Below are positions 9,235-17,150 of a stretch of DNA of 64,000 nucleotides, piece after piece (position 1 is the stretch's first letter; each line of letters begins with the position of its first letter). Made by a program: the position numbers and the translations under genes. The DNA is taken from the NCBI GenBank assembly GCA_037137535.1, contig JBAXKC010000001.1:96001-160000 (forward strand), written 5' to 3'. The notes beneath the pieces are model-generated. The model made no database searches and was not told where the DNA came from. It was given only the letters and a program-made list of their open reading frames with translations. This DNA comes from a bacterium (lineage in GTDB: Bacteria > Cyanobacteriota > Vampirovibrionia > Gastranaerophilales > JBAXKC01).

Positions 9235-9654
9235 ATGTTAAAAAAACCTTTTATTTTAAGTCTGATGTTATTCGGAATATCGATATTGATAGCTATAATT
9301 TTTTCAATATTTATTACTCTTTTTAAGATAAATATAGGTTCATTTATAATCGCCATAGCTGCTACTAATTTAGCTGCCGCCATTACAGGTACGATATATA
9401 CAGGCAAATATAAAGTGGCACTTAATAAAAATGAAAAAATAAAAATTTCAGGATATTACTTTGCAATTCAAATAATAACGTCTACATGTCTAATTTATTT
9501 ACTAAAGATTAAATCAATAGAACTTATAATGGCTATAACCCTAATTCCATTGTTTCTTCTTACTTTAATAATCTATTTTTCACTTGGGAGGGGCTGTAAA
9601 ACAAAACTAAGAGAACTAGAAAAAAAAGAATTATTAAATAAATCTTCAGTTTAA
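9235..9654 (+). CDS. Hypothetical membrane protein, about 4 TM helices
   Basis: Hydrophobic ORF co-oriented with aroQ; AGGG RBS. Confidence 0.65.
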   Translation: MLKKPFILSLMLFGISILIAIIFSIFITLFKINIGSFIIAIAATNLAAAITGTIYTGKYKVALNKNEKIKISGYYFAIQIITSTCLIYLLKIKSIELIMAITLIPLFLLTLIIYFSLGRGCKTKLRELEKKELLNKSSV

Positions 9655-9684
9655 AAAAATTAAGACCGTTTTAAAATTTTTCGC

Positions 9685-9712
9685 AAAATAAAAGCCACCT
9701 TTTTGGGCGGCT
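9685..9712 (-). terminator. Intrinsic terminator of the candidate sRNA
   Basis: Minus strand AGCCGCC-caaaaa-GGTGGCT followed by TTTATTTT. The U-tract and G-U pair work only on the minus strand. Confidence 0.8.
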
Positions 9713-9761
9713 ACCAGACTTTGGGGAGGAGGTTGGGGTATGACCATTTGTTTGGTCTATA
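9685..9761 (-). ncRNA. Candidate sigma28-dependent small RNA with a C-rich anti-SD seed
   Basis: Perfect sigma28 promoter upstream; 5' hairpin GACCA-aacaaa-TGGTC; linker ATACCCCAACCTCCTCCCCAAAG; intrinsic terminator; no credible ORF with an RBS. Confidence 0.75.
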
Positions 9762-9767
9762 TTTTAT

Positions 9768-9794
9768 TTATCGGCAAATTATTTTAAAACTTTA
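9768..9794 (-). promoter_or_regulatory. sigma28 (FliA/SigD) promoter
   Basis: Minus strand TAAAGTTT-taaaataattt-GCCGATAA, an exact match to TAAAGTTT-N11-GCCGATAA. Confidence 0.88.
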
Positions 9795-9834
9795 GGGTTT
9801 TATTTGAAGCAATTAATATTTCTTAACAAAAGTC

Positions 9835-9865
9835 AAAAACCGTTTGCGACAAAACAAACGGTTTT
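9835..9865 (-). terminator. Intrinsic terminator after flgE
   Basis: AAAACCGTTTG / CAAACGGTTTT inverted repeat about 20 nt after the flgE stop. Confidence 0.75.
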
Positions 9866-9887: not shown

Positions 9888-11261
9888 TTATCTTCCGATG
9901 TTAATGATTGATTGCATTATCTGACTCTGTGTTGAGAAAACTCTACTACTTGCTTCAATTCCTCTTTGAGCCAGCATCATCTCTGAGAATTCAGTAGGTA
10001 AGTCGATATTTGCTGTTTCTAATGCCCCAGAATCCACCATTCCAAGTCCACCTGCTTTACCCACGCCATACATAGTGTTTCCTGAACCTGGTCCAAACTG
10101 AAAAAGGTTACCTGACGTGGACATTAAACCTTTTGGATTTGCAACGTTACAAATCTGCAATTGTAATTCTTGAGGCTTTATAGCAGTAACAGAACCACCA
10201 TTAGCTCCTGTAATATCTGCTCCATTAATCTCAGTACCTGTTACTGTTTTATAAGATAAAGCTCTTACCGGATCTCCTGATACTGTAATTTTAGCACCGT
10301 TAGAATAAACTGCTTCAATTGCTCCATCTTTACCTACGGAAAAAGAGGACATTGAATATGTACTTGGAGAAGAATCACCCGGCTCAATACTTATTTTATT
10401 GGTATTTTTCAATCCTATGCTTGAAGTTGTAGTTACAGGAGTAGAAGCGGCAGGGTCTAAAGTTAAAGAATTAAAACCCATTACACTAAAGAAATTACTG
10501 GAATCTCCCGAGTCGCCGAATGTAACTTTTGCAGTAGCTCCGGGACTAGGCTCATCCGGTGCAATGTCAATACTAAGTTTATTTCCTGTAATAGTAGCGG
10601 TTACACCATCAAGAGCATCTATATCTGCTCTTACACTTTCAATTGTGGAATTTTTATCAATGGTAACTGTCTTAGTAGTTACGCTTGTAGGCGAGCCTAA
10701 TCCATCATCAATTTTAAAACTGAATGTTCCCTCAGAAACTGCAGGAGCTTGTCCGGAACATGCATTGGTGATTTTATCTCCAGCCGCAGCATCAGGCATT
10801 GAAAGTTTTAAAGTCTGAGGAATTCTAATCGGAGCTACACTTCCGGAAGGACTAACTACGTTTGCTGTGCCTAGAACTGATAAACCTTGAGGAGTAACAA
10901 GGTTTCCATCTCCATTAATGGAGAAGTTACCGGCTCTTGTCAAAGAAATAGAACCTAGAGGATCTTTAACCGTAAAAAAGCCATCACCTTGAATGTTAAG
11001 ATCGGTAGTTCTTCCTGTTGTTTGAACTGTTCCATTTGAAAAGTTTCTTGATACCTCAGAAAGTGTCGCACCAAGACCAACCTGCATCGGGTTTGTATTA
11101 CTTGATCCATTAGTAAGAGTTCTTACAAAGATATTTTCAAAGTTTACTTTACTACCTTTAAAACCTACCGTATTCATGTTTGCGATATTATCCGCAATTA
11201 CATCTAATTTTGTCTGTGATGTTTTAAGACCCGTAATTGCTGTAAATAGGGCTTGAGACAT
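9888..11261 (-). CDS. flgE: Flagellar hook protein FlgE
   Basis: LFTAITGL...IADNIANMNTVGFK, TGRTTDLNIQGDGFF, TRAGNF, C-terminal GALETANIDL...AQRG; follows flgD. Confidence 0.93.
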   Translation of the reverse strand: MSQALFTAITGLKTSQTKLDVIADNIANMNTVGFKGSKVNFENIFVRTLTNGSSNTNPMQVGLGATLSEVSRNFSNGTVQTTGRTTDLNIQGDGFFTVKDPLGSISLTRAGNFSINGDGNLVTPQGLSVLGTANVVSPSGSVAPIRIPQTLKLSMPDAAAGDKITNACSGQAPAVSEGTFSFKIDDGLGSPTSVTTKTVTIDKNSTIESVRADIDALDGVTATITGNKLSIDIAPDEPSPGATAKVTFGDSGDSSNFFSVMGFNSLTLDPAASTPVTTTSSIGLKNTNKISIEPGDSSPSTYSMSSFSVGKDGAIEAVYSNGAKITVSGDPVRALSYKTVTGTEINGADITGANGGSVTAIKPQELQLQICNVANPKGLMSTSGNLFQFGPGSGNTMYGVGKAGGLGMVDSGALETANIDLPTEFSEMMLAQRGIEASSRVFSTQSQIMQSIINIGR

Positions 11262-11287: not shown

Positions 11288-11707
11288 TTATTTTATGCTC
11301 TGTACTAAATTCATCGGATATGCCTTGTTATTAATAAGAAGATTAGCACCCTTGCTATCTATCTGTGCCTCACTGACTACACCCTTAATGGTACTATTTG
11401 GATTATCAGGATCTGTCATTGTAACTTCTTTTCCAATAAGAGCACTTGCTTGCATAATTTGATTAGATGAATTCTGATTTTTATTTAATTTTTGAAGCTC
11501 GCTTATCTGTGTAAATTGAGCGGTTTGTTGAATAAATTGCTCATTTTTTGTTGGCTCCATAGGATCCTGATTTTGCATTTGCTGCATCAATAATTGAAGA
11601 AATGCATCCTGATCCATGTTACTGCTGCCCATTCTGGTTTTTGCTTTCTCCGCATTAACCATTTTAGTATTATTGGTTATATCTGTTAATGTATTTTGTA
11701 CTAACAT
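11288..11707 (-). CDS. flgD: Flagellar hook cap FlgD
   Basis: DQDAFLQLLMQQMQNQDPMEP...AQFTQI, ASALIGKEV. Confidence 0.93.
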   Translation of the reverse strand: MLVQNTLTDITNNTKMVNAEKAKTRMGSSNMDQDAFLQLLMQQMQNQDPMEPTKNEQFIQQTAQFTQISELQKLNKNQNSSNQIMQASALIGKEVTMTDPDNPNSTIKGVVSEAQIDSKGANLLINNKAYPMNLVQSIK

Positions 11708-16276: not shown

Positions 16277-16580
16277 TCTGATCTCTCCTTCTACCTTCGC
16301 CTCTTTTAGTGTTTAACGTACACTTATATTTACTGTTTTAAATTATATATCAAATTTTAAAATCATACCCAATTCTTTATTAAATTATTATATCTTTATA
16401 AATCCTTTCAGGGCGAATTCAGGCAGGCAGCAGAGACCCACATGTAAAACATGCATTTAAAATATTTATTAAATATATACAAAATACGCAATTTTCAAGA
16501 TCAGTTTGTTTTTATATAAATACAGAGGGAAATAAAAAAGAGAATTTAAAATAAAGCGAGTTTTTTGGGGAGGCAGGTTT

Positions 16581-17150
16581 ATGGGTTTTGACGATATTTC
16601 ATTAGCAAAAATTAAATTTCATTCTTATACTTCAACAACTTCAAATGGAAATGTACAATCAGCAAATCCTTTTAATCAAAGTATTTTTTCAAATTCTACT
16701 TCAGTAAATACAAAGACTCCAAATTCTAGTCTTTCTTATAATAATTCACAGTTCGGAGTGACAACGCCAAACTCCTCTGTTTTTAACAGTTCAACAAGTT
16801 TAAATTATTCAACAACTAATGCAAACAATAACGATAGCTCAATATTTGCAAAGAAGCATCACCATGCACACCACCATCAACATAAAAACAAGGTAGATAC
16901 AGCGAGTAATCCTCAACTTGATGCGATACTTGCCAATGTTGACAATTATATTGCACAATTAGAACAACAAAGTCAGACACAAGAATCCAATAATCCTGAC
17001 AATCAAAATACTGATAATAATGGAGACGATGACAACTTCTTTAAAAAATTAACAAAAACTGCTATTCCAATAGCAATGAGCTTCACAGGTGCAGGCGGCA
17101 ATCCGATTACTGATGCAATAGGTGGTATTGGCGGACTATTTGGTCTTTAA
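16581..17150 (+). CDS. Low-complexity Ser/Asn/Thr-rich protein with His patch and Gly-rich hydrophobic C-terminus
   Basis: Strong GGGGAGG RBS; terminator follows. Confidence 0.7.
   Translation: MGFDDISLAKIKFHSYTSTTSNGNVQSANPFNQSIFSNSTSVNTKTPNSSLSYNNSQFGVTTPNSSVFNSSTSLNYSTTNANNNDSSIFAKKHHHAHHHQHKNKVDTASNPQLDAILANVDNYIAQLEQQSQTQESNNPDNQNTDNNGDDDNFFKKLTKTAIPIAMSFTGAGGNPITDAIGGIGGLFGL

Follow-up and report, generated by a model that had tools for sequence, protein, structure and literature searches.

The minus strand beyond flgE in the window, i.e. the whole stretch of 64,000 nt of DNA that was analysed, carries a gene for a small RNA (sRNA) which, as judged from sequence and comparison, belongs to a real new gene family that occurs order-wide as a stand-alone gene behind a sigma-28-type promoter. 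Comparison among relatives establishes the gene family, its architecture, the conservation of its promoter, its non-coding nature and its distribution. The best explanation of the data as a whole, to which we assign a probability of roughly two in three, is a new family of FliA-driven sRNAs that block G-rich Shine-Dalgarno (SD) sequences in trans. The family is previously undescribed, and the literature on Melainabacteria and Gastranaerophilales yielded no described regulatory RNA for this group, which is uncultured and common in human and animal guts.

Direct reading of the minus strand revealed an exact match to the sigma-28 promoter consensus of E. coli and Salmonella (9768..9794), with the -35 element TAAAGTTT at 9794-9787, an 11-nt spacer at 9786-9776 and the -10 element GCCGATAA at 9775-9768, as had been described in the initial annotation. 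A transcript starting 7-8 nt past the -10 element and ending with the U-tract would be about 77 nt long (9685..9761, minus strand). Its 5' hairpin GACCA-AACAAA-UGGUC (9742..9757), evident on reading and on folding, is followed by a C-rich stretch (9708..9741; AUACCCCAACCUCCUCCCCAAAGUCUGGU at 9741-9713) that is unpaired in the fold and holds the proposed seed, a near-invariant core ACCUCCUCCCCAAAGUCUGGUAGCCG at 9733-9708 defined by column conservation in 139 sequences. The intrinsic terminator (9685..9712) consists of the stem AGCCGCC/GGUGGCU (9712-9693) of seven pairs, one of them G-U, with a CAAAAA loop, and of the tail UUUAUUUU (9692-9685), and a terminator scan called it on the minus strand only. 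Hairpin, C-rich linker, minus-strand-only terminator and a unit of about 77 nt had likewise been predicted, and all were recovered at the same positions; the unit was also said to be unusually GC-rich, and its GC content is 0.42 vs. 0.31 for the genome. The sRNA folds with a minimum free energy of -20.6 kcal/mol (z -2.71), which was equalled by 1 of 200 shuffled sequences. A terminator-like score was also obtained on the plus strand at 9742-9757, where the 5' hairpin's complement precedes a T-rich run, and this element could serve the convergent ORF at 9235-9654.

The neighbour of the sRNA gene is flgE (9888..11261, minus strand; Pfam FlgE/F/G domains), next to which lies flgD (11288..11707, minus strand; Pfam FlgD). 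That flgE has a terminator of its own is borne out by a 12-pair stem at 9836..9865 on the minus strand, called at 9865-9836 and scored on both strands, which sets the flgE transcript apart from the sRNA promoter. About 20 nt ahead of the -35 element an AT-rich word, GTTAAGAAATATTAA (9813..9827, minus strand), was spotted by eye; TTAAG..TGTAA-like words, also found by eye, precede other copies of the sRNA as well as two protein-coding sigma-28-type promoters in relatives. Among metatranscriptome contigs (three RNA runs of one sample, contig level only), one of 160 nt covers flgE at 9924-10083 and none lies on 9685-9794.

The covariance-model match to this gene (contig C1, 105678-105774; window 9678-9774) is one of nine near-identical copies at seven loci of the source genome, the highest count among 40 genomes. 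Variation among the nine copies is confined to promoter spacers, pre-start bases and two loops, the RNA body and the -35 element being invariant, and three of the copies stand in tandem on contig C4 with a period of 161 nt. The exact 16-base promoter motif occurs six times genome-wide vs. about 0.004 times expected from base composition (GC 0.314), and each of the six precedes a copy of the sRNA unit; with up to 3 mismatches, the motif is not enriched in the window (3 found vs. 1.75 expected). Only one of the seven loci has a flagellar neighbourhood, and in 18 relatives no sRNA copy was found within about 1.5 kb past flgE. The position past flgE is therefore incidental, and the initial annotation, which had tied the sRNA to the site downstream of flgE, does not hold in this respect.

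Covariance-model searches detected the sRNA in nearly all genomes covered from its own order (38 of 40). In a class-wide sample, 32 of 151 genomes matched, all of them from this order, and none of 118 genomes from other orders of the class carried the sRNA by the same model. An exact-core scan of public genomes returned at least 119 loci, and the named matches were mostly labelled Gastranaerophilales or Melainabacteria: by a hand tally among the 80 matches listed, 48 were labelled Gastranaerophilales, Melainabacteria, Vampirovibrio or Cyanobacteria, 23 unclassified bacteria and 9 other. The expectation that promoter, seed and covarying stems would be conserved in Vampirovibrionia relatives is thus supported throughout the order, at positions other than flgE.

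The best-conserved part of the sRNA is the unpaired core rather than the hairpins, with about 25 nt, ACCUCCUCCCC(A)AGUCUNGUAGCCG, that show no change or reach 90% conservation or more in 139 sequences. The covariation score of 0.344 was reached by none of 500 shuffles (0.151), and slid controls gave at most 0.139. RNAalifold on a plain MAFFT alignment recovered the terminator and nothing else because the 5' hairpins, which vary in length, were misaligned; a covariance-model alignment and per-sequence folds were used in its place. In the former, double-sided changes occurred at 9 of 9 modelled pairs of the 5' hairpin in relatives, a count that rests on a model-fitted alignment and is biased toward the model. 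When sequences were folded one by one, 138 of 141 distinct copies formed the 5' hairpin with at least 4 pairs, using 59 different arm sequences. The inner pairs of the terminator also covary across relatives, with CG, UA and UG at two positions.

These data are consistent with the following mechanism. FliA (sigma-28) polymerase would initiate about 8 nt past GCCGATAA and end at the intrinsic terminator, giving an RNA of about 77 nt in which the 5' hairpin and the terminator hairpin would keep a C-rich stretch of about 25-30 nt single-stranded. This stretch, ...ACCUCCUCCCC(A)AGUCU..., resembles an anti-SD sequence and may pair with G-rich, UUGGGGAGG-like ribosome-binding sites, by which translation initiation would be blocked, and the sRNA probably silences mRNAs in this way. 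As sigma-28 is active after hook completion, the synthesis of hook proteins would be damped if flgD and flgE are targets; an annexin-like 417-aa protein and an orphan 189-aa protein are further target candidates in the source genome. The nine copies would provide a higher dose of the sRNA.

When pairing was predicted for the 1755 translation-initiation regions of the source genome, the two best stood apart from all others (z -6.8 and -6.4). The first is predicted to pair with both the C-rich and the AAGUCU part of the sRNA, and its orthologues in a second family carry GGGGAGG. The second (dG -34.6, z -6.4) is the ribosome-binding site UUUUGGGGAGGCAGG of the orphan 189-aa ORF in the window (16581-17150 within 16564..17150, plus strand), which belongs to no Pfam family; as a conserved target this ORF was rejected, having no orthologue in 40 relatives. 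Among flagellar genes, flgD ranked 19, fliK 25 and flgE 45 (dG -19.3), and the SD region of flgE, UUGAGGAGGUUG, complements CAACCUCCUC of the sRNA over 10 nt. In relatives, 11 of 18 flgE and 9 of 15 flgD genes (20/33) had GGGGAG in their SD zone vs. 0 of 20 other ORFs of the same loci; in the source genome it was found in 20 of 1755 regions (1.1%). We infer that the sRNA acts in trans and represses, and that conserved candidate targets exist, the best being the hook genes flgD and flgE. However, G-rich SD sequences also pair with the 16S anti-SD, and GGGGAG at flgD and flgE may for this reason reflect translation strength or another regulator, CsrA being present. In five relatives TTGGGGAGG was not enriched genome-wide (28 sites vs. 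32 for the reversed control), and 5 of the 28 sites lay at a start codon. Exact or near-exact complements were rejected as a means of finding targets: CTTGGGGAGGAGG (at most 1 mismatch, 41 genomes) mostly matched the sRNA genes themselves, and 20 further complement sites in relatives fell mostly within coding regions. Beyond the SDs of flgD and flgE, pattern scans gave no further conserved target site.

In ten sampled genomes of family f3, neither flagellin (0/10) nor FlgE (0/10) was detected, and 8 of the 9 among them that were searched with the covariance model keep one sRNA copy. The hook genes can therefore be neither the sole nor the ancestral target, and the sRNA cannot be a regulator of flagellar assembly and nothing else. 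This retention in genomes in which hook-gene targets were not found is also what an sRNA working mainly through a protein would lead one to expect, its invariant stretch serving to bind or sequester a protein with affinity for C-rich RNA, a component of the ribosome or an RNase. Such a role, raised for the ultraconserved motif of Yfr1 by its authors as one alternative (PMC2190773), would suit the length of the conserved stretch, which at about 25 consecutive positions, including AAGUCUNGUAG past the anti-SD-like part, exceeds a typical seed, and would agree with the lack of a clearly conserved target in the pattern scans. On the other hand, the sRNA lacks the repeated motif typical of sequestering RNAs and has no GGA motifs for CsrA, and its best genomic complements fall exactly on ribosome-binding sites, the top target pairing with both parts of the core and the complementary SD, rare elsewhere, occurring at flgD and flgE. 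We therefore consider a mainly protein-mediated function unlikely. In the source genome, Hfq gave a weak, sub-threshold match, and FlgM, considered as a target, no Pfam match.

Regarding the promoter, scores of at least 12/16 were obtained at a fixed distance from the sRNA in 91 of 141 distinct copies vs. 79 of 2820 shuffles, and among 120 copies scoring at least 11 the bases TAAAG and CCGA were more than 90% conserved. The half-site RKAKGAKAT lies 13-14 nt upstream of the -35 element in 57 copies (77 of 135 copies overall vs. 63 of 6750 shuffles), and a flagellin promoter of the source genome has it at an identical distance. The flagellin gene at 19609-20457 of contig C11 is preceded by TAAAGTTT-N11-ACCGATAG (-10 element ACCGATA; score 14/16), the other five of six flagellin genes checked scoring 10-11. 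A fliA gene, the presence of which had been anticipated, was identified at 27701-28375 of contig C23 (TIGR02479, 247 bits; cut-off 189.6), and FliA was above the cut-off in 37 of 41 genomes. Three features of the sigma-28-dependent class, a consensus promoter, fliA and one shared flagellin promoter, are present, and the sRNA is predicted to be transcribed in dependence on FliA.

It might be argued that the sRNA is real and that another sigma factor reads TAAAG..CCGA, or that a housekeeping promoter overlaps it. At least 9 sigma-70-family proteins are encoded in the source genome, and sigma-70-like hexamer pairs (TTCAAA-16-TAAAAT and TTTAAA-16-TAAAAT) overlap the promoter region. In addition, the f3 class of the RNA has a less canonical promoter (mean score 11.5; 10 or less in 16 of 65 copies), its -10 element drifting to CCGTATA-like words in genomes without detectable flagellin or FlgE. 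The sigma-70-like matches are, however, at the level expected by chance in AT-rich DNA (6 found vs. 6.3 expected), whereas promoter conservation falls precisely on the core of the sigma-28 motif (TAAAG and CCGA, spaced by N11-12), and the flagellin gene shares both the -35 and the upstream element. A FliA-family sigma factor was above the cut-off in all of 10 f3 genomes too. Reading by another factor appears less likely again than a protein-mediated function, and FliA is the preferred candidate.

A dispersed intergenic repeat, in which hairpins terminate flanking genes and a promoter-like word arose by chance, would not constitute an independent gene. The multi-copy, intergenic and partly tandem occurrence in the source genome, the location of the window copy between two convergent genes and the terminator-like score of the 5' hairpin complement on the plus strand would all be compatible with such an element. 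Yet the sRNA is single-copy in 32 genomes of the covariance-model searches, e.g. in 31 of the 32 genomes of family f3, its promoter hexamers stay constant across spacers that differ, and conservation peaks in the unpaired core, not in the hairpins. Neighbouring genes are found in every orientation, terminal inverted repeats and target duplications are lacking, and viral contigs contained no match, by which a phage or mobile origin was also rejected. A mere repeat is thus highly improbable, and the interpretation as a gene is maintained. A small protein MVIPQPPPQSLVAA..., encoded from an ATG in the 5' hairpin loop (33-aa ORF at 9747-9646, minus strand, with comparable ORFs at other copies), is hardly credible, since the ATG has no preceding SD, ORF lengths vary among paralogues (33, 43 and 47 aa), by reading a stop lies within the terminator loop of the two C4 copies with an AATAA loop, and in 54 of 141 copies no ORF runs through the core, while in the remaining copies 55 ORFs cross it in frame 0, 58 in frame 2 and 1 in frame 1. 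The statement that the promoter drives no credible ORF agrees with this absence of a conserved reading frame in the 141 copies.

The sRNA ranks with the best-conserved non-coding sequences in the order and so offers a clean marker for it. If the predicted pairing is correct, it would tie the sigma factor of late flagellar genes to a type of ribosome-binding site that is rare and occurs on hook genes, giving a testable handle on the timing of motility, and in one family FliA and the sRNA outlast the genes for hook and filament. On a broader and rather doubtful reading, an order-wide, dosage-amplified anti-SD sRNA would be the output of a flagellar checkpoint, at which completion of the hook and release of FliA would turn off translation of flgD and flgE from their GGGGAG(G) sites, and where hook and filament genes were lost, FliA and the sRNA would survive as a rewired regulatory pair.

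As had been expected, no known Rfam family was recognized: all 11 Rfam 15 matches in the window region (E at most 10) and all 34 at the loci of 20 relatives were far below gathering. In E. coli, UhpU, MotR, FliX and FlgO, which are sigma-28-dependent sRNAs, are all UTR-derived, whereas the sRNA described here stands alone as a gene, has a promoter and a terminator to itself and occurs in up to nine copies. MotR and FliX pair within coding sequences, in contrast to the anti-SD-like seed proposed here, and the paper on the E. coli sRNAs lists Hfq as a keyword, whereas the source genome has only the weak Hfq-like match. In Campylobacter jejuni, CJnc230 (FlmE) lies downstream of flgE and CJnc170 (FlmR) is FliA-dependent (PMC11187230). 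Neither is related in sequence to the present sRNA, and the parallel with FlmE that the initial annotation had drawn fails, as FlmE is processed from the flgE mRNA whereas here flgE has its own terminator, the sRNA has its own promoter and the adjacency of the two is incidental. The csRNAs of Streptococcus are reported as several very similar copies per genome with two stem-loops around an unpaired region that has anti-SD as well as anti-start-codon (CAU) words and have been proposed to block translation initiation (PMC3091779). The sRNA of this study is similarly multi-copy, and its unpaired part reads CAUACC(C)...CCUCCU. It differs in lineage and sequence and in having a sigma-28-type promoter instead of one for the response regulator CiaR, and the best csRNA (RF02379) score, at one relative's locus, was 25.6 bits (E 4.5) vs. 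a gathering threshold of 57.

The design most similar to that of the sRNA is found in Yfr1 (RF01116) of Cyanobacteria, to which the host lineage is a sister class. Yfr1, as described, opens with a 5' stem-loop (6-10 bp), bears an ultraconserved C/U-rich word in a stretch left unpaired and closes with a GC-rich terminator hairpin and U-tail (PMC2190773), and it acts through UCCU base pairing (PMC6778093). Both RNAs thus have two stem-loops, a 5' helix and a terminator, around an unpaired conserved stretch, and the Yfr1 word ACUCCUCACAC has CUCCUC in common with ACCUCCUCCCC (PMC2190773). The two differ in length (about 77 nt here vs. 54-69 nt reported for Yfr1) and in their conserved words, which are of about 25 vs. 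11 nt, the undecanucleotide ACUCCUCACAC being absent here, where the core reads ACCUCCUCCCC(A)AG; the sigma-28-type promoter and the multiple copies in many genomes also set the present sRNA apart. Membership in the Yfr1 family was rejected at the level of the model, which (gathering 38 bits) matched none of the nine loci and none of 151 class genomes, the control S. elongatus being matched; its sole match in the source genome (14 bits, E 5.2) lies at an unrelated place, and Yfr1 was absent from the Rfam match lists at E of at most 10 for the window and at most 5 for the relatives. Homology of the sRNA to Yfr1 is hypothetical. In its boldest version, the broader reading would make the sRNA a long-diverged counterpart of cyanobacterial Yfr1, with a design that predates the split between photosynthetic and non-photosynthetic lineages. 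From the likeness arises a testable question, namely how old this type of sRNA is within the cyanobacterial phylum.

Upstream of the small RNA (sRNA) lie flgE, flgD, fliK and fliJ (Pfam). The sRNA unit occupies the minus strand and consists of a -35 element TAAAGTTT (9794-9787, read from the sequence), 11 nt after it a -10 element GCCGATAA (9775-9768), about 10 nt past that a 5' hairpin GACCA-AACAAA-TGGTC (9757-9742), a 29-nt C-rich stretch AUACCCCAACCUCCUCCCCAAAGUCUGGU (9741-9713), and a terminator AGCCGCC-CAAAAA-GGUGGCU followed by UUUAUUUU (9712-9685). The initial annotation had proposed these parts, together with a separate flgE terminator and an sRNA terminator acting on the minus strand alone, and all were recovered in place: the terminator scan placed the flgE terminator at 9865-9836 and scored that of the sRNA on the minus strand alone, and an 83-nt sRNA stretch gave a predicted fold (-20.6 kcal/mol, z -2.71) that agrees with the earlier drawing. 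As had been expected, no Rfam family came near its gathering score on the sRNA region of the window. Read in the plus direction, the complement of the 5' hairpin (9742-9757) followed by TATATTTTAT also scores as a terminator, and may terminate a convergent 139-aa ORF (9235-9654, plus strand) in which no Pfam family was detected.

The whole assembly to which the window belongs (2.95 Mb, 81 contigs, GC 0.314) was searched for further copies. The exact promoter TAAAGTTT-N11-GCCGATAA occurs at 6 sites, all six upstream of an sRNA unit, and about 0.004 sites are estimated by chance from base composition. BLAST and a core-word search brought the total to nine full copies, spread over seven loci; three of them form a tandem with a period of 161 nt on contig C4. 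The -35 element is identical in all nine; the -10 element reads GCCGATAA in 6 copies and GTCGATAA, GCCGATTT or GCCGATAT in the remaining three. Within the sRNA body the copies differ only in the terminator loop (AAAAA, AATAA, TAAAA or AAAA) and, in one of them, at a single base of the 5' loop, and the promoter spacer and the bases from the -10 element to the hairpin vary freely. As judged from sequence, the paralogues are a natural footprint of promoter and RNA. They are flanked by housekeeping genes of no common function (purine nucleoside phosphorylase, GcvP, MCP, AnmK, fumarase, TPR and HD proteins), with a flagellar neighbour at the window copy alone. Separately, three partial repeats CCAAACAAAT(G)GTCATACCCC, spaced 77-89 nt apart (C8:58594-58790; L208:1095-1287), have the 3' half of the sRNA 5' hairpin and AUACCCC in common, diverge in their C-rich tails and scored neither promoter nor terminator at that site; they could be decayed sRNA copies or a second sibling family.

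Using BLAST, the 121-nt unit was matched in 34 of 41 same-order genomes, with all nine other families represented. The exact core word, taken from the near-invariant C-rich unpaired part of the sRNA, was found at at least 119 loci among 185,579 species genomes; 80 titles from these loci comprised 48 labelled Gastranaerophilales, Melainabacteria, Vampirovibrio or Cyanobacteria, 23 unclassified bacteria and 9 other automatic labels. From 141 distinct sequences an alignment (A1) and a covariance model (R1) were built, and with the model 38 of 40 same-order genomes were found to carry the sRNA, a conservation that supports the small-RNA gene proposed initially; the two genomes without a match were 73% and 99% complete. 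Copy number by the model ranges from 1 to the 9 of the window's genome (6, 4 and 6 in family f4; 4, 2 and 2 in f6; mostly 1 in f3, f8 and f9). In a class-wide sample the model matched 32 of 151 genomes, every one from the same order, and none of 118 genomes from the other ten families; a search of 2.9 million viral contigs returned no sRNA.

Covariation was computed on a model-fitted alignment of 97 matches, in which 80.9% of cells paired versus 67.3% in shuffles, and the covariation score was 0.344 versus 0.151, with 0 of 500 shuffles as high as the observed score; control structures slid by 1-3 columns gave at most 0.139. Changes on both sides were seen in 9 of 9 pairs of the 5' helix and in 2 of 7 terminator pairs. 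Since such an alignment is biased towards its model, each sequence was also folded singly, and 138 of 141 (mean z -5.2) formed a 5' hairpin with 4 or more pairs, whose arms show 59 different sequences. The core, ACCUCCUCCCC(A)AGUCUNGUAGCCG, lies between the two helices as a run of about 25 alignment columns, each of them invariant or conserved to at least 90% over 139 sequences. The initial view that the promoter drives no credible ORF was borne out, as no reading frame is conserved over the 141 copies: 54 have no ORF through the core, the others read it in frame 0 (55 ORFs), frame 2 (58 ORFs) or frame 1 (1 ORF), and ORF ends vary even between paralogues of the same genome.

Promoters were scored as the best upstream match to TAAAGTTT-N10-12-GCCGATAA, out of 16. 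A score of at least 12 was reached by 91 of 141 copies versus 79 of 2820 shuffles, and in the 120 copies with a score of 11 or more, T1-A-A-A-G5 is 90-99% conserved, as are C3 (98%) and G4 (93%) of the -10 element; the distance from the -10 end to the core is 30-39 nt in most copies. The fliA gene, on whose presence the initial proposal depended, is there: FliA (TIGR02479) matches the window's genome with 247 bits and is above cut-off in 37 of 41 genomes. One of the 6 flagellin genes checked in the window's genome carries TAAAGTTT-N11-ACCGATAG. In 77 of 135 copies, versus 63 of 6750 shuffles, there is a half-site, RKAKGAKAT, which frequently forms the right arm of a palindrome of the type ATCTCCTCC-AAAT-GGAGGAGAT; in 57 of those 77 it lies 13-14 nt upstream of the -35 element (e.g., L044, L045 and L054 of relatives). 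The flagellin promoter (C11:19391-19440) has AGAGGATAT exactly 14 nt upstream of its -35 element, the sole such composite in the genome, which ties the sRNA promoter to that of flagellin and suggests that the palindromic element, which includes the complement of the sRNA seed, is a regulator site. Dependence of the sRNA on sigma-28 is likely. Sigma-28-like promoters also precede two further genes (C27:7113-7300 and C7:35741-36752), a small ORF with a Flp-type-pilin-like N-terminus (by eye) and an RcpC/CpaB pilus-assembly gene (Pfam), and the sigma-28 regulon may extend to Tad/Flp pili.

On comparative sequence evidence, the sRNA gene and its architecture can be taken as shown, and the candidate unit (sequence, terminator scan, fold, nine copies) represents a genuine small-RNA family, not catalogued before, whose sigma-28-type promoter is conserved. 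A literature search, supplements aside, yielded no sRNA described in this lineage, in line with the initial annotation.

The proposal that this is a flagellar sRNA stands in part. It is favoured by the presence of fliA and the -35 element in common with a flagellin gene, but the sRNA is kept, as one copy with intact core, in family f3. In ten f3 genomes (G002, G010, G017, G024, G028, G032, G034, G036, G038 and G040) a FliA-family sigma factor is above cut-off in all ten, and neither flagellin nor FlgE (E 1e-40) was detected in any; FlhA was found in 31 of 31 f3 genomes of a separate sample, its scores falling into two classes at about 870 and about 725 bits. In f3 the flagellar sigma factor and an export-gate gene seem to persist where hook and filament genes have gone, in agreement with a statement in PMC4040986 that most Gastranaerophilales genomes retain only a subset of flagellar genes. 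The promoter departs further from the consensus in the f3-typical RNA class (mean score 11.5, n = 65) than in the others (13.9, n = 28; 12.9, n = 43). The window's genome encodes CsrA, gives a weak match only for Hfq, and yielded no FlgM.

The unpaired stretch of the sRNA resembles an anti-Shine-Dalgarno (SD) sequence. A pairing scan over 1755 translation-initiation regions (mean -9.8, sd 3.9 kcal/mol) placed two genes far in front. The best predicted target, C27:7547 (-36.2 kcal/mol, CCAAGACUAUUGGGGAGGAUUUAUG), encodes a protein of 417 aa whose C-terminus is weakly annexin-like. Of 40 relatives, 10 have an orthologue, and two of these orthologues, both belonging to the same genus in a different family, have GGGGAGG at the ribosome-binding site. 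The second (-34.6 kcal/mol) is a 189-aa orphan ORF (16581-17150, plus strand), rich in N, S and T, with a hydrophobic tail and a patch rich in His, for which no Pfam family and no orthologue among 40 relatives were found. Ranks of flgD, fliK and flgE were 19, 25 and 45 of 1755. The clearest target signal comes from relatives that possess flgE: GGGGAG, a rare SD word (20 of 1755 across the window's genome), is in the SD zone of flgE in 11 of 18 relatives (GGGGAGG in 7) and of Pfam-confirmed flgD in 9 of 15 (L264-L282), and in 0 of 20 other ORFs at the same loci; a looser background of 6 in 178 at other retrieved loci is biased, as some had been retrieved for GGGGAG itself. From this recurrence the hook genes emerge as plausible targets conserved among relatives, under a suggested logic by which the late sigma factor would, through the sRNA, lower hook synthesis. 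Action at SD sites with hook genes as targets can be regarded as a supported lead; searches by pattern for further conserved complements turned up no convincing case. Only one site in the genome, CAGACUUUGGGGAG (C45:3577-3590; L206:2020-2210), complements the core perfectly over 14 nt. It lies 3' of an ORF of 102 aa that belongs to no known family, adjoining a DDE transposase, within a strongly folding stretch of about 190 nt (13-bp closing stem, z -2.87) that matches nothing in Rfam; it may act as a target or as a sponge, or be left over from an antisense sequence. One relative (G012, e.g., L231-L233) carries a G/C-rich palindromic repeat, ...CCCCTCCCTTGGGGAGG...GGGGGAGGG..., in about 45 dispersed copies, with none in the other sampled genomes.

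Among known RNAs, cyanobacterial Yfr1 is described in PMC2190773 as having an ultraconserved unpaired word, ACUCCUCACAC, between two stem-loops, an arrangement that the sRNA shares, and pairs with targets through UCCU according to PMC6778093. Membership of the Yfr1 family is rejected at the model level, as its covariance model scored none of the nine loci and matched 0 of 151 class genomes; common descent is speculative. The parallel drawn initially with Campylobacter jejuni FlmE does not hold: FlmE is cut out of the flgE mRNA (PMC11187230) and sigma-28-dependent sRNAs of E. coli derive from UTRs (PMC10578931), whereas the sRNA described here is a stand-alone, multi-copy gene. A functional analogue is offered by the streptococcal csRNAs, which according to PMC3091779 exist as several near-identical copies and present anti-SD and anti-AUG words in an unpaired region.
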